DNA of 64,000 nt from an uncultured Clostridia bacterium (lineage in GTDB: Bacteria; Bacillota; Clostridia; Oscillospirales; QAKW01), in assembly GCA_947627315.1 (NCBI GenBank), contig CANQVN010000001.1, positions 1,656 to 65,655 on the forward strand. Reading direction: 5' to 3'. Every line of letters begins with the position of its first letter. Positions within the stretch are counted from its first letter, which is position 1. The position numbers were made by a program, and so were the translations under genes. The notes beneath the pieces were generated by a model. The model saw only the letters and a program-made list of their open reading frames with translations. It searched no databases and was not told the origin of the DNA. Below are positions 26,471-45,992 of the stretch, one piece after another.

Positions 26471-26499
26471 ATTGACATTATGGATTTTAACGGATATAA
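26471..26499 (+). promoter_or_regulatory. Consensus sigma-A-type promoter of the ATPase/RloB pair
   Basis: TTGACA-N17-TATAAT, an exact consensus match, 50 nt upstream of ATG 26549. Confidence 0.65.
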
Positions 26500-26548
26500 T
26501 ATAAGCAAAAGACGGAAATACTATGTTCATTACTGGAGGAGTCCGTTT

Positions 26549-27727
26549 ATGCTGATACAATTTTCTATTGAAAACCATCGTTCCATCAAAAATAACGCCG
26601 TGATCAGTTTCGCAGCGTCTAAGGATAAGTCTTTGGAAGCCTATCTGCTGCATCCAGACGAAAAGCGGGTTCTTCTTCCGGCTTTGGCTCTTTACGGCGC
26701 CAACGCCGCCGGGAAAAGCAATGTTCTTCACGCGCTTATGACCATGCGGAATATGATCGTCGGCGAATCCTCCAAGATATCCAAGGGGCAAAAACTGCCG
26801 TGGGAGCCTTTCGGAGATACCGCGTCCCCCACATCGTTCGAGATCGTATTTCTCTACCGCGGCGTCCGCTATACCTATGGATATTCCTTTGACGCCGAGA
26901 GAATTTATACCGAATATCTCTATCACTGGCCAAACGGTCGTGAGGCGCTGATCTTTTCAAGAGAAAACGGCAAGTACGAGTTTCGCGAGAACGTCAACGA
27001 GCAGATAACGCTGAGCAACCGCACCGCGGAAAACAAACTGTATCTTGTTTCTTCAAACGACTGGAATTTGCCGCAAACGGAAAACGCGTATAAGTGGTTT
27101 TTGGAAAAGCTGACTTTCCTGATGGCGGAGCCGCCCGCCTCGTCCAAAACCGTTGCGCAGATCGCGGACGGTGACGAAAAAAAGGCACGCATACTCAAGG
27201 AGTTGCTGTTGGCGGATCTCGGTATATCGGACGTGTCCGTTAAAAGCACTTCCGGAAAGGCGCCCGTTATTACCACGACGCACCGTATGATCCGCGAGGA
27301 CGGCAGTGTGGAGCACTTTTCACTTGTGATGGATCAGGAGTCCTCCGGTACGCAGCGGTTCTTTGCCCGCATCGGCGGATGGCTTCAGGCGCTTGAGGAC
27401 GGCGCGCTGTTGGTGGTGGATGAGATCGAAGACAGCCTGCACCCGCTTCTGACAAAGCGGCTGATCGAAATGGTACAGGATAACACTGTCAATACGAACG
27501 GCGCACAGCTGTTGTTTACAACACATGACGCCATGCTGCTCGATCTTACCTTTTTCCGCAGGGATCAAATATGGTTTGCCGAAAAGAATGAAAAAAGCTG
27601 CGCCACCGAGCTTTACTCATTGGCGTCTTTCTCCCCGCGAAAGGGCGAGAACATCCGCAAGGGATATCTTCAGGGACGCTTCGGCGCAATTCCATTTATC
27701 GGAGGTGACGCTTTGTGGCAGCAATGA
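26549..27727 (+). CDS. AAA_21/ABC-like ATPase (AbiLi / OLD-ATPase-like defence component)
   Basis: Internal ATG 9 nt after GGAGGA. MLIQFSIENHRSIK. Walker A LYGANAAGKSNVLHAL. Walker B LLVVDEIEDSLHP. TTHD signature. Confidence 0.75.
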   Translation: MLIQFSIENHRSIKNNAVISFAASKDKSLEAYLLHPDEKRVLLPALALYGANAAGKSNVLHALMTMRNMIVGESSKISKGQKLPWEPFGDTASPTSFEIVFLYRGVRYTYGYSFDAERIYTEYLYHWPNGREALIFSRENGKYEFRENVNEQITLSNRTAENKLYLVSSNDWNLPQTENAYKWFLEKLTFLMAEPPASSKTVAQIADGDEKKARILKELLLADLGISDVSVKSTSGKAPVITTTHRMIREDGSVEHFSLVMDQESSGTQRFFARIGGWLQALEDGALLVVDEIEDSLHPLLTKRLIEMVQDNTVNTNGAQLLFTTHDAMLLDLTFFRRDQIWFAEKNEKSCATELYSLASFSPRKGENIRKGYLQGRFGAIPFIGGDALWQQ

Positions 27728-33621: not shown

Positions 33622-33687
33622 GAAAGGAAGAAAAATGAATGTATGTAAGAACAATGAGCCTTGCGGGAACGAACCGGGAGGCGCACG

Positions 33688-36600
33688 GTGAAATATAAAG
33701 TTTACGATACGCCCGTACCGCAAAATCAGCGGGAGGAGGTCAATAAAAAACTCCTGCATCTGATAGACGCCTGCCGATATGGCGAAAGTGAAGTAAGTGC
33801 GGCGGACGTTTACAACCGCTATACCGGTCACGGCGGGCTTCACGATTTGAACAGAAAAGATTTTGAAAATTACGCGGCTTATGGCAATGCCAAAAAAGAG
33901 ATAGAAAACGGACAGTTTTTTACGCCGCCTCGCCTTTGTAAACTTGTTGCGGATTGTCTGATGCCGACCGAACAGGCGCAAATAGCCGATCTGACTTGCG
34001 GCGCAGGCGGATTTTTCAATTTCTTTCCGGTTGAGAGCAATTTGTACGGCTGTGAAATTGACGACGATGCGTATCGGGTGGCAAAATTTCTTTATCCGGA
34101 TGCGAATTTGGAAAAAGCGGATATTCGCGAATATAGTCCGAGCGTTCGATTTGACTATATCGTGGGAAATCCGCCGTACAATCTGAAGTGGACGACTCAC
34201 GACGGCAATACGGAAGTGTCGCAGAACTATTACTGTTATAAATCCGCAGGGCTGCTCAAGCCAAACGGCATATTGGCGGTTATTCTTCCGCTTTCGTTTC
34301 TTTCCGACAGCTTTTCGGACGGAGGACAAATAAGAGAAATGGAAAAGCGATTTCATTTTCTCGGTCAGGTATCCCTTCCGAAAAATTTATTTTCGGCTCT
34401 CGGCGTTTGCTCTTTTGGCACCAAACTTCAATTTTGGCAGCGAAAAAAGAATCCGTCGCCCGGCAGTTACCATACGGCGATGGATCTTTCGCTTGACGAT
34501 GATTTTGACGGCGCGGAAGCGGCAAAACGGATAACCGAAACCCTGCTTTCCGACGCCCTGGATCTGATGCGGCGCGACCGTGTCGCGGGCATCCTTGAAA
34601 TGGCTAAGGAAAAAGAGTTGTCCGAGGATTTTCGGTATCAGGTCAGAAAGCGGCTGTATCAAATCAGTTGTCATCCGAGGCTTAAAAACAGTTATGCAAG
34701 CTGCTGTGAGTACCTGTTTCGCTTTTGCACGCAGAAACAGCCGGAGGGCATGCCCTTTGAAGAGTGGCGGAAAAGACGAATTACCGAAGCAAAAGTGCTG
34801 GCATATATGAACAGGGTCTTGTCGTCGCAAAACGACAAACCGCCCTGCGATAAAATCTCTCTTGTGAAGCGGGACTATGATCTTGTCTACAAAGGTTACA
34901 GTGCAAAAACGCGGAAAATTTTGACGGGAGGTATGAAAGAGCCGATGCCGATTTATGAACTCGCCTCCTCGGACGGAGAATTTTATAACGGCTACGAGCG
35001 GCTGATCCGTAAAAAGCGGGATGCGTACATACGTCAAAACAGACGGTTTAGCGATATGCGGGAAGATCCCACGATTGCTGAATGGCTCGCGAATTTCAGT
35101 CTGTGGGATGCGGAAAACGAGGAAGTTATCCGCTTAAACGATATGCAGCGGCACGACATCAATCTGATGCTTCAAAAGCGATACGGGCTTTTGCAATGGG
35201 AGCAAGGGAGCGGAAAAACGCTTGCCGGAATTGCCGTAGGCAAATACCGGATGGAGCGTGAAAATATCCGGTATACCTGGGTCGTTTCGACCGCCATTTC
35301 CATTCGCAATAACTGGGATATGGTCTTGAAAAATTACAAACAGCCCTATGTGTTTGTAAAAAAGCAGCGCGATCTTGAAAAGATACGCAGCGGAGATTTT
35401 GTCTTGATTACGCTGAACGCATTGTCAAAGTACAAAAAGTTTATTAAACGGTGGATCCGCATTCACAACCGAAAAATACAACTGATTTTCGATGAGAGCG
35501 ACGAGATGTCAAATCCGAACAGCATTCGGGCAAAGGCCGCGCTGGATTGCTTCAGAAAATGCAAAGCCAAACTCTTGACGACCGGCACGAGCACAAGAAA
35601 TAATATCTCGGAATTTGCGCCGCAGTTGGAGTTACTCTATAACAATTCGGTCAATATGATATCCTGGTGTCGGTTCGTTTACCACTACGATAAGAGGTCG
35701 GATTACCTGGACGGAGTGCAGAACGCATATTTCGGCAAACCGATCCCGGCGTACAAAAAGGGCTACTCTTTGTTCTCGGCTTCACATCTGCCCGAAAAAA
35801 TCACGGTGTTTGGCGCAAAGCAGCGAACGCAGGATATTTACAATGCGGAACTGCTGGACGAAATACTCGGAAAGACCGTTATAACGCGCAGTTTTGAAGA
35901 GATCGTCGGCAGGGATATCCGCCGTATTCATCAGCTTCCCGTATCGTTTGCGCCCGCCGAACGCGCGGTGTATCAGATGGCGATGGAGGAATTTTATAAA
36001 ATGCGGGACAACTATTTTGCTTCTACCGGAAATTCGAGAAAAGATTCCATGATGAAACTGATGCAGCAGATCACGCTGTTGCTGAAGATCAGCGCCGCTC
36101 CCGACACGGTCAAAGAATATAGCGGCGGCTTGCCGGTAAAAATCGGCAGGATCATTGAGATGTTAGGAGAATTTTCGGACGAGATTGTTACGATAGGCGT
36201 CCGACATAAAGCGGTGCTTGATGCTTATAAAGGCGCATTCGAGCAGGCGTATCCGAATCGCAAACTGTATGCCGTAACCGGTTCTTCCTATACATTCGCA
36301 CAGCGTCGTGCGCTCCAAAAAACTCTCAAAGAAAGCAAAAACGGCATTCTCCTTTGCACGCAGCAGAGCTTACCGTCCAGCGTGAACTTTGAATTTGTAA
36401 ACAAGGTGATCATTCCGGAGCTTCATTACAATAATGCAAAAATGAGCCAGTTCTATATGCGGTTTGTAAGGTACACGTCCACCGAATGGAAAGATATTTA
36501 TTTTATTACCTACGGCGGCAGTATTGAATCAAACCTGATGCAGATGGTACTGGCGAAGGAAAAAATAAACCTGTTTATGAAAGGTCAGGATAAAAACCTT

Positions 36601-36717
36601 GATGAGATATATTCCAAATTCGGAGTGGATTACGACTTGCTTTCTATGCTGATGTATCGGGAGCGGGACGAAAAAGGACAATTCCATATAAGATGGGGAG
36701 AGCAGCAAATTTCATAG
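33688..36717 (+). CDS. N6-adenine DNA methyltransferase fused to an SNF2/DEAD-like helicase (ICE anti-restriction-type methylase-helicase)
   Basis: GTG start after GGGAGG (the track start 33661 is a TTG). MTase motif I DLTCGAGGFF and motif IV GNPPYN. Helicase motifs QGSGKTLAG, IFDESDEMSNP and TTGTSTRNN, plus a C-terminal helicase lobe. Confidence 0.75.
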   Translation: MKYKVYDTPVPQNQREEVNKKLLHLIDACRYGESEVSAADVYNRYTGHGGLHDLNRKDFENYAAYGNAKKEIENGQFFTPPRLCKLVADCLMPTEQAQIADLTCGAGGFFNFFPVESNLYGCEIDDDAYRVAKFLYPDANLEKADIREYSPSVRFDYIVGNPPYNLKWTTHDGNTEVSQNYYCYKSAGLLKPNGILAVILPLSFLSDSFSDGGQIREMEKRFHFLGQVSLPKNLFSALGVCSFGTKLQFWQRKKNPSPGSYHTAMDLSLDDDFDGAEAAKRITETLLSDALDLMRRDRVAGILEMAKEKELSEDFRYQVRKRLYQISCHPRLKNSYASCCEYLFRFCTQKQPEGMPFEEWRKRRITEAKVLAYMNRVLSSQNDKPPCDKISLVKRDYDLVYKGYSAKTRKILTGGMKEPMPIYELASSDGEFYNGYERLIRKKRDAYIRQNRRFSDMREDPTIAEWLANFSLWDAENEEVIRLNDMQRHDINLMLQKRYGLLQWEQGSGKTLAGIAVGKYRMERENIRYTWVVSTAISIRNNWDMVLKNYKQPYVFVKKQRDLEKIRSGDFVLITLNALSKYKKFIKRWIRIHNRKIQLIFDESDEMSNPNSIRAKAALDCFRKCKAKLLTTGTSTRNNISEFAPQLELLYNNSVNMISWCRFVYHYDKRSDYLDGVQNAYFGKPIPAYKKGYSLFSASHLPEKITVFGAKQRTQDIYNAELLDEILGKTVITRSFEEIVGRDIRRIHQLPVSFAPAERAVYQMAMEEFYKMRDNYFASTGNSRKDSMMKLMQQITLLLKISAAPDTVKEYSGGLPVKIGRIIEMLGEFSDEIVTIGVRHKAVLDAYKGAFEQAYPNRKLYAVTGSSYTFAQRRALQKTLKESKNGILLCTQQSLPSSVNFEFVNKVIIPELHYNNAKMSQFYMRFVRYTSTEWKDIYFITYGGSIESNLMQMVLAKEKINLFMKGQDKNLDEIYSKFGVDYDLLSMLMYRERDEKGQFHIRWGEQQIS

Positions 36718-38024: not shown

Positions 38025-38152
38025 GTTATAGGCATATAAGTTTTTAATTGCTTAGGCAACTGTGTACGGAGGCTGTAATTTGGTAAGCAGTAATATACCG
38101 TGTAGAAAAACAAAAAACAGACGCCAAAAGACATCTGTTAATTTAATGTGTT

Positions 38153-38178
38153 TTTTCGTAAAGTATGTCACTCAACGA
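38153..38178 (+). repeat. Left copy of the perfect 26-bp inverted repeat bracketing the island integrase
   Basis: TTTTCGTAAAGTATGTCACTCAACGA. The exact reverse complement occurs at 39589-39614. Confidence 0.9.
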
Positions 38179-38390: not shown

Positions 38391-39521
38391 ATGCCAAAGA
38401 CAGGAGAAAACATTTATAAACGCAAAGACGGTCGATGGGAGGGCAGATACATTCGCTACTATGATGAAAATGGAGTCGGTAAATACGGATATGTATACGC
38501 TAAAACTTATAGAGAGGTTAAGATAAAACTTGCAGAAAAATCTGCAATTATTTCATCTCGACAGATATTACTTTCAAATAGTCATGTTACCTACGACGAA
38601 ATTTTAACCGCATGGTTACAGTCGTCAAGAATTAACATAAAAGAATCAACCTACGCGAGATATACGCATATAGTTGATAGTCATATCCGACCATCGTTGG
38701 GTAAGTATCAACTTTGCAAGATCAGCACGCAGTTAATTGAAGGGTATATAGAAAGCAAATTGCACAATGGAAGATTGGATAAGAACGGTCCTCTATCTGC
38801 AAAAACCGTAACAGATATGCTCTCTATAATCAAAAGTTCTTTTGAATATGCCAGATACAATAATCTTCCGGTTATTTGTAATTTAAGCAAGTTGTCGATT
38901 AAAAGAAAAGATAAAGAGATGCGTGTACTCCGACAGGATGAGCAAAATTTGTTGGTGCGTGTGCTGCTTGATAAAATTGATTTATATAAATTCGGTGTTC
39001 TTTTATCTCTTTATACCGGTATTAGAATTGGAGAACTATGTGCATTACGGTGGGGCAATTTGTGTTTAGACGACCGTATTCTTAGAGTCAGAGAGACGAT
39101 GCAGCGCATCCGGGATACAAACATGGAAACAAATACTAAGACCAAGATCATTATTACAGAGCCAAAGAGTCAGTGCTCTATCCGTGATATTCCATTGCCG
39201 GAATGTATCGTTGTGATTGCACGACAATTTCGCGCATCAGATAAAGATTTTATTCTTACCGGAGATCGCGTAAAATTTGTTGAACCTCGTACAATGCAAA
39301 ACCGTTTTAGGCATTACGTCATGGAATGCGGAATCGACCAAGCAAATTTTCATTCTCTCAGACATACATTTGCAACACGATGTGTTGAACTTGGTTTCGA
39401 ATTGAAGAGTTTGAGCGAAATACTCGGTCATTCAAATGTAAATATTACTCTTAATAAATATGTCCACTCATCATTTGAGTTGAAACACAGCAACATGAAT
39501 AAACTTACATTACCACTTTAG
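38391..39521 (+). CDS. int: Tyrosine site-specific integrase (Tn916-Int/phage-integrase family) of the nested island
   Basis: RBS GGAGGA. N-terminal arm-binding pattern GENIYKRKDGRWEGRY. Catalytic-region motifs LYTGIRIGELCALRW, HSLRHTFATR and LGHSNVNITLNKYVH. Confidence 0.85.
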   Translation: MPKTGENIYKRKDGRWEGRYIRYYDENGVGKYGYVYAKTYREVKIKLAEKSAIISSRQILLSNSHVTYDEILTAWLQSSRINIKESTYARYTHIVDSHIRPSLGKYQLCKISTQLIEGYIESKLHNGRLDKNGPLSAKTVTDMLSIIKSSFEYARYNNLPVICNLSKLSIKRKDKEMRVLRQDEQNLLVRVLLDKIDLYKFGVLLSLYTGIRIGELCALRWGNLCLDDRILRVRETMQRIRDTNMETNTKTKIIITEPKSQCSIRDIPLPECIVVIARQFRASDKDFILTGDRVKFVEPRTMQNRFRHYVMECGIDQANFHSLRHTFATRCVELGFELKSLSEILGHSNVNITLNKYVHSSFELKHSNMNKLTLPL

Positions 39522-39544
39522 CGCCGTCAAAATAATAGTCAAAT

Positions 39545-39588: not shown

Positions 39589-39614
39589 TCGTTGAGTGAC
39601 ATACTTTACGAAAA
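39589..39614 (-). repeat. Right copy of the perfect 26-bp inverted repeat
   Basis: TCGTTGAGTGACATACTTTACGAAAA is the reverse complement of 38153-38178. Confidence 0.9.
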
Positions 39615-39620
39615 TATAAA
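39592..39620 (+). promoter_or_regulatory. Candidate promoter whose -35 box lies inside the right inverted repeat
   Basis: TTGAGT-N17-TATAAA, 16 nt upstream of ATG 39636. Confidence 0.45.
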
Positions 39621-39635
39621 ATAGCGGGTGTGAAT

Positions 39636-39983
39636 ATGAGCGATTACCAAGTAAATAAGTTGCTTGACATTGATAAAGATCAGTTAATTGCACGATTAAC
39701 TTCTGATTTGTCTGCGCTGTGAGCAAAACTTGGAATATCACAGTATGCACTTGCCAATCTAATTGGAATATCAAGGCAAACCTACAATTCTATTGAAACC
39801 GGCAAGAAAAAGATGCCGTGGAATGTCTTTTTGGCCTTGATTTTGTTATTTGGCTTTAATGAAAAAACTTCGTATCTTGTAGAGGCATCTGGTGCATTTT
39901 CTCCTTCCCTAAAAAAGGTTTTAGGAATCAATGAACGGGTTGAGAAAGCACTTGACGATATATTGGTTTCAAATACAATATAA
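39636..39983 (+). pseudogene. XRE-family HTH regulator interrupted by an in-frame TGA at 39720-39722
   Basis: MSDYQVNKLLDIDKDQLIARLTSDLSAL*AKLGISQYALANLIGISRQTYNSIETGKKKMPWNVFLALILLFGFNEKT.... The HTH lies downstream of the stop, with no start codon after it. Confidence 0.6.
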
Positions 39984-40312
39984 AAATTTGATGGCAAAAT
40001 AATAGTCAACCAATTCATTAAAAATTCAACAACAAAAATATTTAAATTTTGGGGAGTAAATTTAGAAGTAAATTATAGAGTAGAGTTGATCAAATATAAA
40101 GGCGACCAATAATACCTTTATAGGGTGACGTCAAAGCGAGGATATCAATACATTATCCTCTTTTAGATATTCCAAACCTTCATATATGTACTCGAATTAA
40201 ACTTTTACGAAAAATTAGCCTTGAGTTTCCAGTATCTATGCCTGAGAGAACTATGGTGCAAGTTCTAACCAGATTTCCTAAAAAGTAACAATAATTCAGG
40301 AGGTTTCATCGT

Positions 40313-42007
40313 ATGAGCGATATGGATATACTCTCTGATGGCAATTTTGATATCGAATCTGACTCAAGTCTTGACAGCGACTTGGATTTGTATATGGATT
40401 CCGATATAGAATCTCTGGATTCGTTTGATGATGTTGATGCTTCGTTTTTGGGGGACGGCGATTCAAATATGGATCTCGATTCTACAGGCTCGGACTTTTT
40501 CAATGAGTCATTTGATGAAGTTGGTCTGCAAGCAGATATAGATGAAGCATCTGATTCTTCAGAAGATCTTTTGAGTGATTTGGATGAAGTTCCCGATACG
40601 GAGAACTTCGAATCTATTTCGGAAGTTGATATTGATACATCTGACGATGAAATTGAAATTCTTGAAATGGATGATGGTGAACTAATCGATGAAGTAGGAA
40701 CAGCATTTGAAGCCGACGATGAAACAGAAGAAGTTTCGGGTGAACAAATTGACTTACTTGATACAAATGATTATTTAAGCGATGTGGCTGATGATATACA
40801 AGAAGAAGCCGGTTTAATTTCAGACGAAACGGAAACCTTGTCTGAAAACATCAGTGGCGGGTTGGATTTAGAAGACGGACTTGAATCATTATCTCTTGAA
40901 GATTTAACAGATCTCGAGTATGAAAATGGTAATGAAGAACTGGAAGAACTTGTCTCGCCGGCGGAAGAGGAAATGACCGAAACTCCAGAGGATGCTTTGG
41001 ATGCCATTCAAGCGGAGCGGGAAAGACTTACTGAAATAAAAGAAGCACTCGCAGAGATGCAAAATTCCGAAATTAAAGATGCAGATGAGTATGAAGAAGA
41101 TTCTCCGATGGTACGCACTCGTGAGATAACATCTGAGATACTTGAGAGCAGAGAACGCGACACCGAGGAAGTTCTTGATAATTATCGAGATAACCTTCGC
41201 GGATACGGCGTCAATGAAGCGCAGATTGAAGAATTTGTCGAACAAGAACGCGAAAAGATCAACGCCGAATATGAGAGTTTAGATCGCGGAGACGAATATC
41301 CACAGATGTATGAAACGCCGAATGATTGGGAGAAAATTTCAGCATCCTTAATGGGTCAAGAAACTCAAGATGAGATACACTATGAATCCTCTCAGTTTTC
41401 TGAAATAGAAAATCAGGCTTTAGAAGAATTAGAAGAGGAGAATCAGGAGTTAGAGATCAATTATGATGAAATTTATGAGGCTATTCAACAAGATTCCCTT
41501 GAACAAGGTTTTGAGAATATCCAAGTAGATGCAGACCCGGAGAGATTAAATCAATCATTAGAAAACTTCAATGAATCGACATGGGAGGATCTTACTCTCG
41601 ATGAACAAAAAGACTCGATGGCATCTTTGGCTGATTATGTAGTCGATGTGATCGGATTTGAAAATCCACCAAAAATTGAGTACTACAACAACGAACGTAA
41701 AGGTGACTTTGGCGGATACGACTCAACTGCCAATACTTTGTATATCAATGAATATATGTTATACAATTCCGATGAGGCTGCCGATACAATTGCTCACGAA
41801 CTATGGCATGCCCATCAACATGAATGTGCTGAAAATCCTCAAAGTGCTCTCGATTATCAGTATCAGTACAATTTTGAAAATTATATACCGCCTGAATTGG
41901 GGCAAGAAGAGTATGAATCCCAGTTAGTTGAAGCAGAAGCCAGAGCTTTTGCGGCTCAGTTCAAAGATAGATTATCTCATATTAATAGAGGTCATGACGA
42001 TGGATAA
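40313..42007 (+). CDS. Hyper-acidic protein with a C-terminal HExxH zincin-like domain
   Basis: RBS AGGAGG. The first ~230 aa have almost no Lys/Arg and are D/E/S-rich. C-terminus: TLYINEYMLYNSDEAADTIAHELWHAHQHE...EAEARAFA. Confidence 0.55.
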   Translation: MSDMDILSDGNFDIESDSSLDSDLDLYMDSDIESLDSFDDVDASFLGDGDSNMDLDSTGSDFFNESFDEVGLQADIDEASDSSEDLLSDLDEVPDTENFESISEVDIDTSDDEIEILEMDDGELIDEVGTAFEADDETEEVSGEQIDLLDTNDYLSDVADDIQEEAGLISDETETLSENISGGLDLEDGLESLSLEDLTDLEYENGNEELEELVSPAEEEMTETPEDALDAIQAERERLTEIKEALAEMQNSEIKDADEYEEDSPMVRTREITSEILESRERDTEEVLDNYRDNLRGYGVNEAQIEEFVEQEREKINAEYESLDRGDEYPQMYETPNDWEKISASLMGQETQDEIHYESSQFSEIENQALEELEEENQELEINYDEIYEAIQQDSLEQGFENIQVDADPERLNQSLENFNESTWEDLTLDEQKDSMASLADYVVDVIGFENPPKIEYYNNERKGDFGGYDSTANTLYINEYMLYNSDEAADTIAHELWHAHQHECAENPQSALDYQYQYNFENYIPPELGQEEYESQLVEAEARAFAAQFKDRLSHINRGHDDG

Positions 42008-42296
42008 AATTATACAATATTTAATGTGTGAAAAGGGCGTTACTGAAGTAGTTGCCAAAGTCCTGTTCAGAACACTTACAAAGTATAAGGATATCGAGAG
42101 CGAGTTTATTTATTGGATAGATAATAGAAGTTACAATGCGCCAAACGCCATTGAAATTGGCGGCTACTCTGCCAAGAAAATCAGTGAAATCGCACCTTCA
42201 TTGGATGCAGCCGGAGTGTATAATTTCATGGTTACACTGCGAGATGTCCCCGAAAAAGCACAGGAATATATTAAAAATGGATTTCCAAGAAAGTGA
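42000..42296 (+). CDS. Small hypothetical protein (99 aa) overlapping the HExxH gene end (possible cognate partner or immunity-like protein)
   Basis: The ATG lies inside GATGGATAA of the upstream stop. No family recognised. Confidence 0.4.
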   Translation: MDKIIQYLMCEKGVTEVVAKVLFRTLTKYKDIESEFIYWIDNRSYNAPNAIEIGGYSAKKISEIAPSLDAAGVYNFMVTLRDVPEKAQEYIKNGFPRK

Positions 42297-42305
42297 GGGT
42301 TGATT

Positions 42306-44066
42306 ATGGAAAACAACAGACTTACAGGTTACCCGTCGATTGATAAGCCTTGGATGAAATACTATGATTGCAGCGACAAGGTAGATATTCCTAAGCTCTC
42401 AATATATCAAATGATCAGAAAGAATAACGCAACCCGTTTGAATAAGGTCGCTCTTGATCTGCGGAGTAGTGCAAACGGTTATAAAAAGGGAATCGAAATC
42501 ACTTATGGGAAGTTTTTCAAGCGTATCGAAATGGTTGCAAAGGCATATTCATACTTGGGTCTTAAGCCAGACGACATTTTGATAACTATTTTGCCCAATA
42601 TCCCCGAGAGCAGAATTTTGATTTACGGAATGAATCTTCTCGGCGTTACTGTATATCCCGTTTCTCCGTTTATTTCAGTTGTTCAGTTGGAAAAGGTGAT
42701 TGACGAATGTAGCTCAAAAAATATAGTTGTTTTTGAAAAATTCCTTAAAAAATTTGAGAGTGCTTTGGCGGCAAAATCATTCAACAGTATCTTGCTTGTG
42801 AATGGCATGGAATCGGCTCCTTTTGCTCTTAAACTGGCACAGAAAATTATCAACCCCGCTGTAAAGCGTGAACTTACGAACGGGAATTTGCTATACTGGA
42901 GTCATATCGAAAAATTAGCTGATAAGGTCAAAAAAGATATTGTACCATACTATGATTCTGAACATATAGCAGTTATAGTTGGCACGAGTGGGACAACTGG
43001 CACGCCAAAGGGGGTATGCCTTACAGATGATAATCTCAACGCTATTGCGCTTCAGCATTACTTGAGCGGTATTTTTGATGAAGAAGATGTTATGCTTGAC
43101 GCTCTTATTCAGTCGATTGGGTATGGGATATCTACGATGCACTATTCAACTTGTTATGGATTAAAGAATATTCTCATTCCTGAACTGCTAACAGATAAGT
43201 TTTCTGAGGTTCTTTGTTTGACTAAACCCGACCACTTTACGGGAGGTCCGGTACATTTTCAATATCTTGTTAACAGCAAGGAATTTATCAATAAAGAACT
43301 TCCTCCGATGAAAAATTTAGTTTCGGGAGGAGCCTCCTTGCCAAAGGTTTTAGAAAAGCAGATTAATAATGTCGATGATGATTTTTCTGAAAATGGGCAA
43401 AAGGATAACAGGATAATTGTGCGTCAAGGATTTGGATGCACCGAAAACGGTGGCTGCGGAGCATATTCAAAGGCAGGAGCATACAAATTTGGCGGCGTAG
43501 GGATACCGCTCCCGCTAGATACTTTTGCTATTTTTGAGCCAAATACGGATAAAGAACTGCCGTATAATACCGAAGGGGAAATATGTATAAGTGGTCCTAC
43601 GGTCATGAAATGTTACTTGAATAATCCTGCCGAAACAGAGAATGTTCTTAAAGCCCATTCCGACGGTCGCGTATGGCTTCACCTTGCCGATCTTGGGGAA
43701 ATCGACGAGGACGGACAGGTGTATATTATTGACAGAATCAAAAACATATTCATGCGTACGGGCTTCAATGTTCACCCGTCAAAAATTGCGGAGTTTATTT
43801 CTTCCCTGCCGTACATAAGCGAGTGCGTCGTTTTGGGTGTACCTGACTCAAAGGAGCAGATGGTCCCTGCGGCGTATATGGTAATAAATCCCGACTGCAA
43901 AGAGGATAAAGACAGCGTTTTGAAGTCGATTCAAAAAGAATGTGAGAGCAATCTCAGCGAAACGGATATGCCTGCGCACTGGTATTTTGTGGATGATATC
44001 CCGAGAAACGCAGGAGGCAAAGTAGATTACCTAGCCTTAGAAAAAGAAGCGGCATATATCAATTAA
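42306..44066 (+). CDS. ANL-superfamily adenylate-forming enzyme (acyl-CoA synthetase-like), paralog 1
   Basis: N-terminal TGYPSIDKPWMKYY. Motifs VGTSGTTGTPKGV, GFGCTENGG, GEICISGPTVMKCYLNNPAET, LADLGEIDEDGQVYIIDRIKN and C-terminal GGKVDY. Confidence 0.75.
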   Translation: MENNRLTGYPSIDKPWMKYYDCSDKVDIPKLSIYQMIRKNNATRLNKVALDLRSSANGYKKGIEITYGKFFKRIEMVAKAYSYLGLKPDDILITILPNIPESRILIYGMNLLGVTVYPVSPFISVVQLEKVIDECSSKNIVVFEKFLKKFESALAAKSFNSILLVNGMESAPFALKLAQKIINPAVKRELTNGNLLYWSHIEKLADKVKKDIVPYYDSEHIAVIVGTSGTTGTPKGVCLTDDNLNAIALQHYLSGIFDEEDVMLDALIQSIGYGISTMHYSTCYGLKNILIPELLTDKFSEVLCLTKPDHFTGGPVHFQYLVNSKEFINKELPPMKNLVSGGASLPKVLEKQINNVDDDFSENGQKDNRIIVRQGFGCTENGGCGAYSKAGAYKFGGVGIPLPLDTFAIFEPNTDKELPYNTEGEICISGPTVMKCYLNNPAETENVLKAHSDGRVWLHLADLGEIDEDGQVYIIDRIKNIFMRTGFNVHPSKIAEFISSLPYISECVVLGVPDSKEQMVPAAYMVINPDCKEDKDSVLKSIQKECESNLSETDMPAHWYFVDDIPRNAGGKVDYLALEKEAAYIN

Positions 44067-44082
44067 AGTTAAGAGGTCAAAA

Positions 44083-45837
44083 ATGCAAATCGAGAAGAAA
44101 ATGACTGGCTACCCGTCAATTGATAAGCCTTGGTTAAAATATTATCGTAAAGAAGCAATCAACGCTCCGCTCCCAACATGCTCAATGTACGAATATATTT
44201 ACAAGAACAATAAAAATCATCTCGATGCTATTGCGCTTGTATATTTTAATACTAAAATAACTTACCGCACCTTATTTGATGAAATTAATAAAGCAACCAC
44301 AGCATTTCTTGCTGCTGGACTAAAAAAAGGCGATGTTGTTTCGTTTATTACCATTACTACTCCCGAGATGATATATGCCCTCTATGCAATAAATAAAATT
44401 GGAGCGATTGCGAGTATAATTGATCCACGCGCATCGGCGGAGTCATTAAAAAAGCAAATTACGGATGCAAAATCTAATATACTGATTCTACTTGATGCTT
44501 GTATAGAACAAGTTGAATCTGTTATATCCTCTTTGACTTTTAAGGAAATAGTGGTTATACCTGTAAACCAATCAATGAATTTTCCTATCAAACAGATCTA
44601 TTCGGCAAAGGCGATATTTAGCAAAAAAATACCCGTCAGAAGTTTTCGATTTATTACTTGGAGGAATTTCATAAAAGCATCTGATTCTTTGCTGCTTACT
44701 ACAATTGAATCAGATGCTAATGCACCCGCAGCAATTACCTATACTGGTGGAACAACTGGCATTCCCAAAGGCGTTGTGCTCTCTAATCAAAATATCAATT
44801 CCGTTGCAGAACAATATAAAAATGCTGCTAGTTCTCTTAAAAGAGGTCAATCTTGGCTTACCGTTTCAGCGCCATTTATAGCATATGCCTTTATTGTCGG
44901 GCTGCATCTTCCATTATCATACGGAATGAGATGCTGTATAGAATTATATGATCCAGAAGTTATGGTTCATAATATTCTTCGAAAAAAGATCAATCACGTG
45001 GCAGCAACACCTGTTGTGTTTGAAAAATTACTTAATAACCCCCGAGCGCAAAAAGCAGACCTATCTTTTTTAATTGCTCCTACTTGCGGTGCAGATGCTC
45101 TGAGTCTTCAATTAGAACAGAGGATTAATACATTTTTATCTGAACATAAGTGTAAATGGAAAATTTGCCAGGGGTATGGCATGACAGAGGTTGGAACAGG
45201 CGTCTCTTTAAATATTTCGAAAAATTGTTATAAACTTGGTAGCGTTGGTGTTCCATTTGGAAATACAATAGTATCAACCTTTGATACAAAAGCATATGAA
45301 GAACAAAAAATTGGCTCTGTAGGTGAAATATGTATACAGGGACCAAGTGTTATGCAAGGATACTATAATGATCCGATTGCAACAAACTTGGTTATACGGA
45401 AGCACTCTGATGGCTCAGTATGGTTTCACACTGGAGATTTAGGCTATTTTGATGAAGACGGTTTTCTCTATATAGTCGGAAGAATAAAACGAATGATTAC
45501 CCGATATGATGGCTTTAAGGTATTTCCCGCCGTAGTTGAAGAGGCATTGATAAAACATACTTATGTTGAACAATGCGCGGTAATCGGAGTAGAGGATTCC
45601 AAACATCAAGTTGGACAATTACCAGTTGCATTCATTGTTTTATCTAAAGATTGTGATATTGCACAGACCAAAATAATCAGCCAATTAAATGTTTACTGTA
45701 ATAATCTTTTGCCAAAATATGCACACCCTATCACATATTTTTTTCGCAACTCTTTGCCTCTCACTGCCGCAAATAAAATAGATTATAGGGCACTTGAGGA
45801 AGATGCCGCCAGTACAGAAGAAATCAGAATTGAATGA
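44083..45837 (+). CDS. ANL-superfamily adenylate-forming enzyme, paralog 2
   Basis: N-terminal TGYPSIDKPWLKYY. Motifs YTGGTTGIPKGV, GYGMTEVG, GEICIQGPSVMQGYYNDP and TGDLGYFDEDGFLYIVGRIKR. Confidence 0.75.
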   Translation: MQIEKKMTGYPSIDKPWLKYYRKEAINAPLPTCSMYEYIYKNNKNHLDAIALVYFNTKITYRTLFDEINKATTAFLAAGLKKGDVVSFITITTPEMIYALYAINKIGAIASIIDPRASAESLKKQITDAKSNILILLDACIEQVESVISSLTFKEIVVIPVNQSMNFPIKQIYSAKAIFSKKIPVRSFRFITWRNFIKASDSLLLTTIESDANAPAAITYTGGTTGIPKGVVLSNQNINSVAEQYKNAASSLKRGQSWLTVSAPFIAYAFIVGLHLPLSYGMRCCIELYDPEVMVHNILRKKINHVAATPVVFEKLLNNPRAQKADLSFLIAPTCGADALSLQLEQRINTFLSEHKCKWKICQGYGMTEVGTGVSLNISKNCYKLGSVGVPFGNTIVSTFDTKAYEEQKIGSVGEICIQGPSVMQGYYNDPIATNLVIRKHSDGSVWFHTGDLGYFDEDGFLYIVGRIKRMITRYDGFKVFPAVVEEALIKHTYVEQCAVIGVEDSKHQVGQLPVAFIVLSKDCDIAQTKIISQLNVYCNNLLPKYAHPITYFFRNSLPLTAANKIDYRALEEDAASTEEIRIE

Positions 45838-45992
45838 ATCATTAATAAAATTGTAAATTTCAGAAGTACATCCTATTGTGAAATTCACTTTTGAAGATAC
45901 ACTTTTACACGATTAAAAATAACTTTTTTCGGCTTCGAATAAAAATAATTCTATATATAGTAAATAAAGGTGAAAACATGGAGGAAATGTAA

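Follow-up and report, generated by a model that had tools for sequence, protein, structure and literature searches.

A tightly packed four-gene cluster from an uncultured Clostridia bacterium as a probable recombinational mosaic of HerA/SPFH module genes and unrelated ligase cassettes

We analyzed a cluster of four tightly packed genes on a 64,000-nucleotide (nt) stretch of DNA from an uncultured Clostridia bacterium (GenBank assembly GCA_947627315.1, contig CANQVN010000001.1). The whole stretch is hereafter called the window, and all positions are given in its coordinates. The first gene, g1, encodes an acidic protein with a putative zincin active site; it is followed by the small gene g2 and by ANL3 and ANL4, which encode two adenylate-forming enzymes (Table 1). 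The original prediction considered these genes to be one system: an anti-defense set, a toxin–immunity pair accompanied by modifying enzymes, or an acylation pathway that works without a carrier. The layout on which it built was present as claimed, since both the open reading frame (ORF) list and direct measurement gave spacings of -8, 9 and 16 nt. Shine–Dalgarno-like sites precede each of the four genes, and no terminator-like hairpin of note was detected between g1 and 53.7 kb, which makes co-transcription plausible. The cluster lies on a low-GC island (35–42% GC, about 38–54 kb) within DNA of about 50% GC. The gene order of the island is recombinase, helix-turn-helix (HTH) regulator, g1, g2, ANL3, ANL4, a 62-amino-acid (aa) ORF, a 247-aa ORF, an acetyltransferase, an SPFH protein, a 129-aa hydrophobic protein, a protein with zinc-ribbon (ZnR), transmembrane (TM) and TPR segments, and a HerA-like ATPase.

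Table 1. Features of the island, in window coordinates
Feature	Position	Strand	Remarks
Invertible segment	38144-39623		Inverted repeats 38144-38178 and 39589-39623 (35 nt, 22-nt perfect core)
Tyrosine recombinase gene	38391-39521	+	Pfam Phage_integrase and SAM_3; hairpin after the gene, within the segment
XRE-type HTH regulator gene	39637-39984	+	In-frame TGA; homologous to the HTH preceding the module in relatives (cluster c11)
HerA C-terminal relic	40154-40288	+	Last 44 codons (YPLLDIPNLHICTRIKLLRKISLEFPVSMPERTMVQVLTRFPKK, then stop); frame upstream full of stops
g1	40313-42007	+	564 aa, acidic, zincin-like
g2	42000-42296	+	98 aa; ATG overlaps g1 stop by 8 nt
ANL3	42306-44066	+	586 aa; gap after g2, 9 nt
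ANL4	44083-45837	+	584 aa; gap after ANL3, 16 nt
62-aa ORF, 247-aa ORF and acetyltransferase	45993-47657	+	Further inserted cargo
Hexapeptide (Maa/LacA-like) acetyltransferase	47157-47657	+	About the first 58 profile positions missing
SPFH protein (Band_7_1), two C-terminal zinc ribbons	47767-48885	+	Pfam E 3e-37; cluster c3
Hydrophobic SPFH partner, 129 aa	48901-49290	+	Always adjoins the Band_7_1 gene in relatives
ZnR-TPR protein	49303-50637	+	N-terminal CxxC..CxxC, hydrophobic segment, TPR (Pfam), C-terminal domain
HerA/FtsK-superfamily ATPase, 885 aa	50721-53378	+	Walker A GTPGSGKT at 397; VIMIDE at 621

The gene neighborhoods of g1 relatives were surveyed in 15 genome, 80 metagenome and 2 viral loci, fetched with the conserved g1 C-terminus. 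The window proteins were compared with 109 fetched loci by tblastn, and all ORFs were clustered all-against-all; collapsing identical g1 C-termini left 76 distinct loci. The labels used below for loci (L001–L124) and for homologous proteins (P0001 and so on) are internal to this analysis. Where 4 kb or more was available upstream of g1, a HerA-like gene was present in 31/33 distinct loci; it directly adjoined g1 in 21/38. Among loci with full flanks, an SPFH (Band_7_1) gene was found in 9/10 and its membrane partner in 10/10. The usual order was recombinase, HTH, SPFH, membrane protein, ZnR protein, HerA, g1, g2. Three sub-blocks, namely SPFH with the membrane protein, ZnR with HerA, and g1 with g2, were each intact, while their order differed in L047, L016/L039, L017 and the window. 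That the sub-blocks were shuffled while the set was kept suggests a functional link among them, beyond mere inherited synteny. The hosts of this module included Lachnospiraceae, Oscillospiraceae, Erysipelotrichaceae, Eubacterium, Treponema and metagenome-assembled genomes of Bacteroidales, and the sources were human, ruminant and termite gut bacteria.

The same survey bears on whether the ligase genes belong to this set. No ANL gene was found in the 101 other g1 loci (76 distinct), either by tblastn or with a family hidden Markov model (HMM) that was built from 41 relatives and run on 1047 ORFs; the only matches of the HMM were the two window genes. The g1–g2–ANL3 junction occurred elsewhere only in two short contigs (L001, L002), which are 100% identical to the window and thus represent the same element rather than an independent co-occurrence. 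The proposal that the four genes act as one system was therefore refuted by the co-occurrence survey, a check that the original prediction had itself named as able to overturn it.

Next, we located the points at which homology to other loci begins and ends. Directly before g1 lies a relic of the C-terminus of a HerA-like gene, which is 66% identical to the C-terminus of the HerA-like protein of L003 (E 8e-17) and also matches those of L014, L004, L013 and L028. DNA homology to L003 begins at 40163. The relic did not significantly resemble the full-length HerA-like protein that the window itself encodes, and no remnants of g1 or g2 were found after the full-length HerA gene in the window. A HerA relic of a foreign lineage before g1 indicates that the g1–g2 block was cut from a canonical HerA–g1–g2 arrangement of another lineage. 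The pair is thus not simply the first after the integrase and regulator, as had been proposed. Homology to g1–g2 loci stops at 42294–42312, and homology to ANL3 cargo starts at 42303; the breakpoints coincide exactly with the gene borders. The DNA of ANL3 (42303–44027) is 87–88% identical to the cargo gene of a set of small elements (L110–L119), and that of ANL4 (44104–45844) is 79.5% identical to two further loci (L120, L121) with different flanks. As the relatives of ANL3 and ANL4 are in different contexts, the two genes appear to be independently acquired cassettes and the tight operon a patchwork.

The whole g1 protein has a net charge of -154 and consists of a polyanionic N-terminus (residues 1–230), a helical middle (about 265–345) and a C-terminal zincin domain (about 375–564). 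Measurement confirmed that the N-terminus is free of Lys and Arg: residues 1–230 contain none of either and 38% Asp+Glu. This region lacks a confident fold and is probably disordered. In an alignment of 120 homologs (P0001–P0120) the acidic region could be measured in 116, and was 51–595 aa long with a median of 35% D+E and 3% K+R. The C-terminal ~190 aa were nearly invariant and the middle helical segment was conserved. The HExxH and EAEARAFA motifs that had been reported in g1 were found at 495–499 (HELWH) and 540–547, and provide the putative zincin residues H495, E496, H499 and E540/E542. HELWH was present in 119/120 homologs and EAEAR[AS]F in 115/120. The family has at least 215 cluster-level relatives. 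Separately, we observed that 52/120 homologs open with MCDMD or MCDID, Cys2 included, before the acidic tract, and that some (L047) have long near-perfect tandem peptide repeats within the acidic region.

An AlphaFold2 (AF2) model of the C-terminal 310 aa of g1 had a predicted local distance difference test score (pLDDT) of 83. In the model, a three-stranded sheet (E200–204, E213–216 and E221–225, model numbering) is followed by the HExxH helix and then by a Glu-bearing helix. The 50 PDB matches listed by Foldseek included minigluzincins (jannalysin, selecase and abylysin), PprI/IrrE, an ImmA-like Mycobacterium tuberculosis regulator and anthrax lethal factor; matches to viral models (BFVD) included SprT-like, IrrE-like, M48 and PolyVal metallopeptidase models. 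Foldseek probabilities reached 1.0 but E-values were weak (2e-3 to 0.3). By sequence, the C-terminal half of g1 had no PDB match below E 0.7. Sub-threshold Pfam matches in the g1 family were DUF6782 in 43/48 members and SprT-like in 20/48, and the Pfam scan of g1 itself gave weak DUF6782 and Baculo_F matches alone. In agreement with the zincin-like C-terminus proposed from the motifs, the modeled fold identifies this domain as a minimal zincin of the SprT/IrrE type, that is, a predicted metallopeptidase.

The g2 protein is a six-helix protein in its AF2 model (pLDDT 93). Neither the Pfam scan nor Foldseek assigned it to a family in Pfam or the PDB; its best Foldseek E-value against the PDB was 2.8, and CARD/PYD folds had a probability of 0.03, for which reason we do not claim a death fold. 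PADLOC gave a marginal match to the C-terminus of a type I restriction-modification model (E 0.009). The gene followed g1 in 58/67 distinct loci with room for it. The spacing was mostly 3, -1 or 0 nt, which indicates translational coupling, so the proposal that g2 is a partner of g1 held. A profile search with g2 yielded 435 representatives, many of which are stand-alone 98-aa proteins. The domain also occurs C-terminally or in tandem in larger proteins of low-GC Firmicutes (P0323, P0324, P0330, P0354, P0382, P0335, P0309, P0313 and P0315), where no Pfam family covers it. These larger proteins are rich in short repeats of the form KY(D/N)IxPE(D/K)NxPQxVYG(I/V)P, and in P0335 the domain is fused to a P-loop N-terminus that is VirD4/TraG-like by eye. 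They were considered as g1–g2 Rosetta-stone fusions, and turned out not to be fusions to g1. Its recurrence in larger proteins points to a reusable domain with an adaptor or recognition role, and less to an immunity protein of the classic type. The toxin–immunity version of the earlier interpretation was further weakened by the loci, since g1–g2 was almost never autonomous, given the frequency of HerA (31/33) and SPFH (9/10) genes beside it. No signal peptide was evident by eye on g1 or g2.

The remainder of the module in the window follows the inserted genes. Its ATPase matched DUF87 (E 1.6e-9) and HerA_C in Pfam, with weak TrwB_AAD_bind and TraG-D_C matches. In PADLOC it matched HerA models (1e-10 to 8e-17), mad8 (2e-21) and DndH models. 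Its best PDB sequence matches were 4d2i (HerA), 9c1m, 8wiv, 8xau and 8j4u; some of the latter four we take to be HerA proteins of defense systems. By these domain and sequence matches the ATPase belongs to the HerA clade. The hydrophobic SPFH partner is probably a membrane protein, and at 129 aa is short compared with 223–261 aa in relatives. The ZnR-TPR protein fills a variable slot before HerA that in many relatives is held by a ZnR-TPR-TIR protein, with TIR_2 in the L003 and L004 equivalents. An N-terminal CxxC..CxxC was found in 18/34 genes upstream of HerA, and several others were truncated at contig ends. PADLOC had no model that matches the module as a system, and its scans gave no matches for g1, for the ANL, SPFH, membrane or ZnR proteins, or for the coiled-coil paralogs described below.

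The genes beyond g2 varied among the relatives. Some loci have Macro and DUF6440 genes after g2; in the TIR-containing variant of L004 these are a tandem pair of DUF6440 genes plus one Macro-domain gene (L004:12270–13375), an arrangement that, beside TIR, fits NAD/ADP-ribose chemistry for that variant. A common human-gut variant (L047:11140–20805; also L018, L032, L037 and L040–L064) continues past g2. Its additional genes encode three paralogous coiled-coil proteins of ~530–580 aa that end in a TM hairpin, an AAA ATPase resembling IetA (PADLOC E 7e-31), a Sel1-repeat protein, a polytopic membrane protein of TM7S3-like type and a protein of 165 aa.

The recombinase gene at the left end of the island lies within a segment bounded by inverted repeats. 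The corresponding 1.44-kb segments of L047 (400–1839) and L063 (646–2085) are 98.5% identical and inverted relative to each other, with collinear flanks, and the same inversion was seen between L018 and L040 (first 783 nt). The two orientations were about equally frequent among loci. The presence of the segment in both orientations indicates that the "integrase" behaves as an invertase, and that a self-encoded inverton stands beside the module. As judged from sequence, module expression may therefore be phase-variable via inversion; the hairpin terminator was seen to travel with the recombinase gene on the inverted segment. In L005 and L006, an HTH_3 gene lies between the recombinase and Band_7_1. 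Given its in-frame TGA, the HTH gene of the window is probably a pseudogene; it lies between two copies of a perfect 15-nt direct repeat (CAAAATAATAGTCAA) at 39528–39542 and 39995–40009.

Both ligases are members of the ANL superfamily by domains and motifs, and the earlier description of them as ANL paralogs without a carrier protein was upheld. PF00501 and PF13193 were found in both (Pfam E 1e-47 and 3e-66). The A3 motifs are TSGTTGTPKG and TGGTTGIPKG, the A5 motifs GFGCTE and GYGMTE, and the C-terminal GGKVDY and ANKIDY (A10 Lys) are visible in the translations. The two proteins are 31% identical and share GYPSIDKPW near the start, at residue 8 or 9. NCBIfam models all fell below their cut-offs for both proteins, the best being NF004837 (236.6 and 287.6 bits vs. 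a cut-off of 476), and FadD equivalog status was rejected. No PP-binding or condensation domain was found by Pfam in any ORF scanned at 38–54 kb. A nonribosomal-peptide-synthetase-like or otherwise carrier-dependent acylation pathway was likewise rejected, since these ORFs include no carrier, condensation domain or dedicated transferase. The most likely role of the ANL enzymes is that of cargo enzymes that activate carboxylates independently.

The small elements that carry the close relatives of ANL3 have the order resolvase, ANL, DUF3847, MobA/MobL and large serine recombinase, with the ANL gene as sole cargo. They were present at up to about 14x coverage in the ENA sample series ERZ27249xxx, which also contains fragments identical to the window. 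The ANL clade has more than 7000 relatives; in the PLSDB plasmids only distant ones (<30%) were found. Further distant relatives (L008, L009, L010–L012, L122–L124) form arrays of 2–3 paralogs, often with 1–7 PF01553 genes and many 30–60-aa ORFs, one of which had a weak Hol_Tox match. These arrays adjoin integrases, resolvases, and restriction-modification or WYL/DUF4062 genes, and the ANL–PF01553 combination could be a mobile lipid- or peptide-acylation cassette.

Between ANL4 and the SPFH gene lie three further ORFs, for which all-ORF clustering revealed no counterparts in other g1 loci. The 247-aa ORF had no family match; by eye, it has a single N-terminal TM segment and Sel1-like repeats. 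The acetyltransferase match begins at profile position 59 of 203, which indicates an N-terminal truncation and agrees with the earlier description of this gene as broken.

The DNA around the island is a conjugative element, which encodes a VirB4-like ATPase, a type IV secretion system coupling protein, an SpaA/TQ adhesin, an SNF2-methylase, PcfJ/PcfK and a YodL/primase-like protein. No convincing att-type direct repeats were found around the 38–54 kb island, and the GC shift alone defines its ends. An AAA_21 (AbiEii-like/OLD-type) ATPase gene at 26480–27727 and an SNF2–N6-methylase fusion at 33661–36717 are conflict genes of the host element beyond those of the island.

In conclusion, the four genes are best read as a recombinational mosaic, to which we assign a probability of roughly three in four. 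According to this reading g1–g2 is the terminal gene pair of a conserved mobile HerA/SPFH module, whose remaining genes lie downstream at 47767–53378, and the ANL genes are unrelated cassettes. The module itself would be a HerA-centered conflict system. What the data show are the conservation of the gene set, the breakpoints, a zincin fold in g1 and the affinity of the ATPase to HerA. On this reading, a g1–g2 block together with the last 44 codons of its former HerA neighbor was placed behind the broken HTH gene in the window, and two unrelated FadD-like cassettes with gene debris were spliced between g2 and the SPFH gene.

Several points weigh against this reading. The ANL genes are probably co-transcribed with g1–g2, considering the tight spacing, the Shine–Dalgarno-like sites and the lack of terminators, and a local, recently evolved functional link between the ANL genes and g1–g2 remains conceivable. 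At 9/67 distinct g1 loci with room for it, g2 was not detected. The defense role is deduced from domain content (HerA, TIR and Macro) and from the mobile, variable context, and PADLOC recognized the HerA-like ATPase alone, plus a weak PDC-S66 match in a TIR-TPR relative. Finally, the rearranged copy in the window may not be functional as a unit here: the HTH gene is broken, the membrane partner is short, and g1–g2 and HerA are of different lineages, which leaves module function in the window uncertain.

As for its function, the gene content suggests that the module is probably a membrane-associated, HerA-centered conflict system directed against phages or plasmids. A more specific proposal, which we put forward tentatively and hold to be somewhat short of an even chance, is that gut anaerobes (Clostridia, Erysipelotrichaceae, Treponema and Bacteroidales) possess an undescribed immune system that is membrane-anchored and possibly phase-variable, and in which a HerA motor controls a zincin effector via the new g2 adaptor. 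In the conflict system as we envisage it, the SPFH protein, its membrane partner and the ZnR protein would build a scaffold or sensor of the YdjGHI kind at the membrane, and HerA would serve as the motor or assembly platform. The zincin g1 would be the effector, held or targeted by g2, with the TIR protein as a second effector where present, and the invertible recombinase segment may switch module expression.

The strongest rival, although unlikely in our estimation, is that the module does not act in immunity and is instead a membrane-stress or repair device of the YdjGHI/PspA kind, or a HerA/FtsK-like pump that moves DNA or the polyanionic g1. The SPFH-ZnR, membrane and ZnR-membrane proteins mirror the PspA-recruiting ydjGHI genes of Bacillus subtilis. 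The weak TrwB_AAD_bind and TraG-D_C matches of the HerA-like protein, the P-loop fusion of the g2 domain in P0335, and the three coiled-coil membrane paralogs with an AAA ATPase in the human-gut variant also point in this direction. However, PspA genes were not encountered at the loci, gene calling in the modules examined gave neither a relaxase nor any other conjugation gene, and g1 and g2 lack a signal peptide evident by eye. Moreover, the TIR_2 and Macro domains and the patchy, mobile and shuffled distribution beside an invertible recombinase fit a conflict system better.

Less probable still is that g1–g2, with or without the HerA module, provides an anti-defense or establishment function to mobile elements, as an ArdC-like protease or a polyanionic DNA mimic. 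This explanation draws on the zincin, which is of a SprT-like or PolyVal-like kind seen in polyvalent proteins of phages and plasmids, on the extreme acidity of the g1 N-terminus, and on the location of the window copy in a conjugative element. In addition, one g1 homolog was recorded with methyltransferase Pfam domains and another with an extra SprT-like domain. The analogy to ArdC, ArdA and Ocr drawn in the original prediction did not hold, however. The N-terminal ArdC-N domain (PF08401) is absent, and the 230 aa in its place are low-complexity D/E/S. The ArdC-type peptidase domain gave a mixed picture, with a zincin fold and some PolyVal matches in BFVD on one side, and no PF18818 match and no ArdC among the 50 listed PDB matches on the other. 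ArdA (PF07275) and Ocr mimicry found no Pfam match, and the acidic region, with its variable length, low complexity and, in some homologs, tandem repeats, differs from folded DNA mimics. In several relatives (L004 and L017 among them) the module has ordinary chromosomal genes as neighbors, without a called conjugation gene in the vicinity, only 2 g1 loci were found in IMG/VR, and PLSDB plasmids contained no relative of the g1 zincin. Furthermore, HerA and SPFH as constant companions of g1–g2, and TIR as a frequent one, are typical of host-side immunity. That all four genes form one system is highly improbable: the spacing, ribosome-binding sites, lack of a terminator and recurrence of the junction in L001 and L002 speak for it, but those contigs are the same element, no other g1 locus has an ANL gene, the closer DNA relatives of ANL3 (88%) and ANL4 (79.5%) occur in contexts without g1 and g2, and the breakpoints fall exactly at the gene borders.

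The distinction matters in practice, since the original prediction would direct work at a nonexistent four-gene acylation or anti-defense system, whereas the mosaic reading takes the tight packing as a scar of cassette recombination. The gene set behind g1–g2 is present in at least 76 distinct loci, and four of its six proteins are without family assignment; no published description of a HerA/SPFH/zincin module, or of the ANL clade, was found in the literature. If the module is an immune system, the HerA-based defense repertoire would be extended by a protease-type effector and by a membrane scaffold built on SPFH, the small g2 domain, which is reused in many larger Firmicute proteins, would gain a function, and there would be an example of a defense module beside a self-encoded DNA invertase. 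The ANL cassettes constitute a separate lead, as a large orphan ligase clade and the sole cargo of small mobilizable elements.

Several parts of the locus resemble known systems. The ANL enzymes share PF00501, PF13193, the A3/A5 motifs and the C-terminal Lys with FadD and Aas, and their best NCBIfam models are long-chain-fatty-acid-CoA ligases; their relatives often adjoin PF01553 PlsC-type acyltransferases, as in an Aas fusion. Unlike FadD/Aas, the clade has the motif [YF]P[ST][IVL][DE]KPW in 109/120 homologs and occurs in tandem paralog arrays and as cargo of small mobilizable elements. The setting of the ANL3 relatives, between a small resolvase and DUF3847, MobA/MobL and a serine recombinase, is presumably comparable to that in Tn4451-like mobilizable transposons or small resolvase-Mob elements. 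Tn4451-like elements carry an accessory, often resistance, gene at that slot. Unlike these elements, the window received the ANL coding region alone, without element recombinase or Mob.

In the Sir2-HerA system, an effector partners HerA (PMC11514289). Our module resembles Sir2-HerA (Nezha) and DUF4297-HerA in that a HerA-clade ATPase stands beside a putative effector, with a mobile and patchy distribution. No Sir2 or DUF4297 domain was found in the window or the relatives examined, where the HerA neighbor is the zincin g1. Unlike those systems, the module has an ATPase with an extra ~360-aa N-terminal region, and it adds g2, SPFH, membrane and zinc-ribbon/TPR(-TIR) genes.

The SPFH part of the module is likened by domain layout to pspA-ydjGHI, whose SPFH protein YdjI we assume to be a PF13421 member. 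In B. subtilis, YdjI has a C-terminal zinc finger, has no membrane anchor of its own and needs two membrane proteins; YdjI, YdjH and YdjG assemble at the membrane and recruit PspA (PMC8581546). In both cases, a multi-pass membrane protein and a membrane protein starting with CxxC are encoded beside the SPFH gene, the window equivalents being Band_7_1 with its zinc ribbons, the 129-aa hydrophobic protein and the ZnR-TM-TPR protein. Unlike ydjGHI, the module is found on mobile islands without PspA, and it combines its SPFH part with HerA, a zincin and, in many cases, TIR. With the zincins of ArdC/PolyVal and SprT-like proteins, g1 shares the minimal HExxH zincin domain, whereas its partners differ, being HerA, SPFH and g2.

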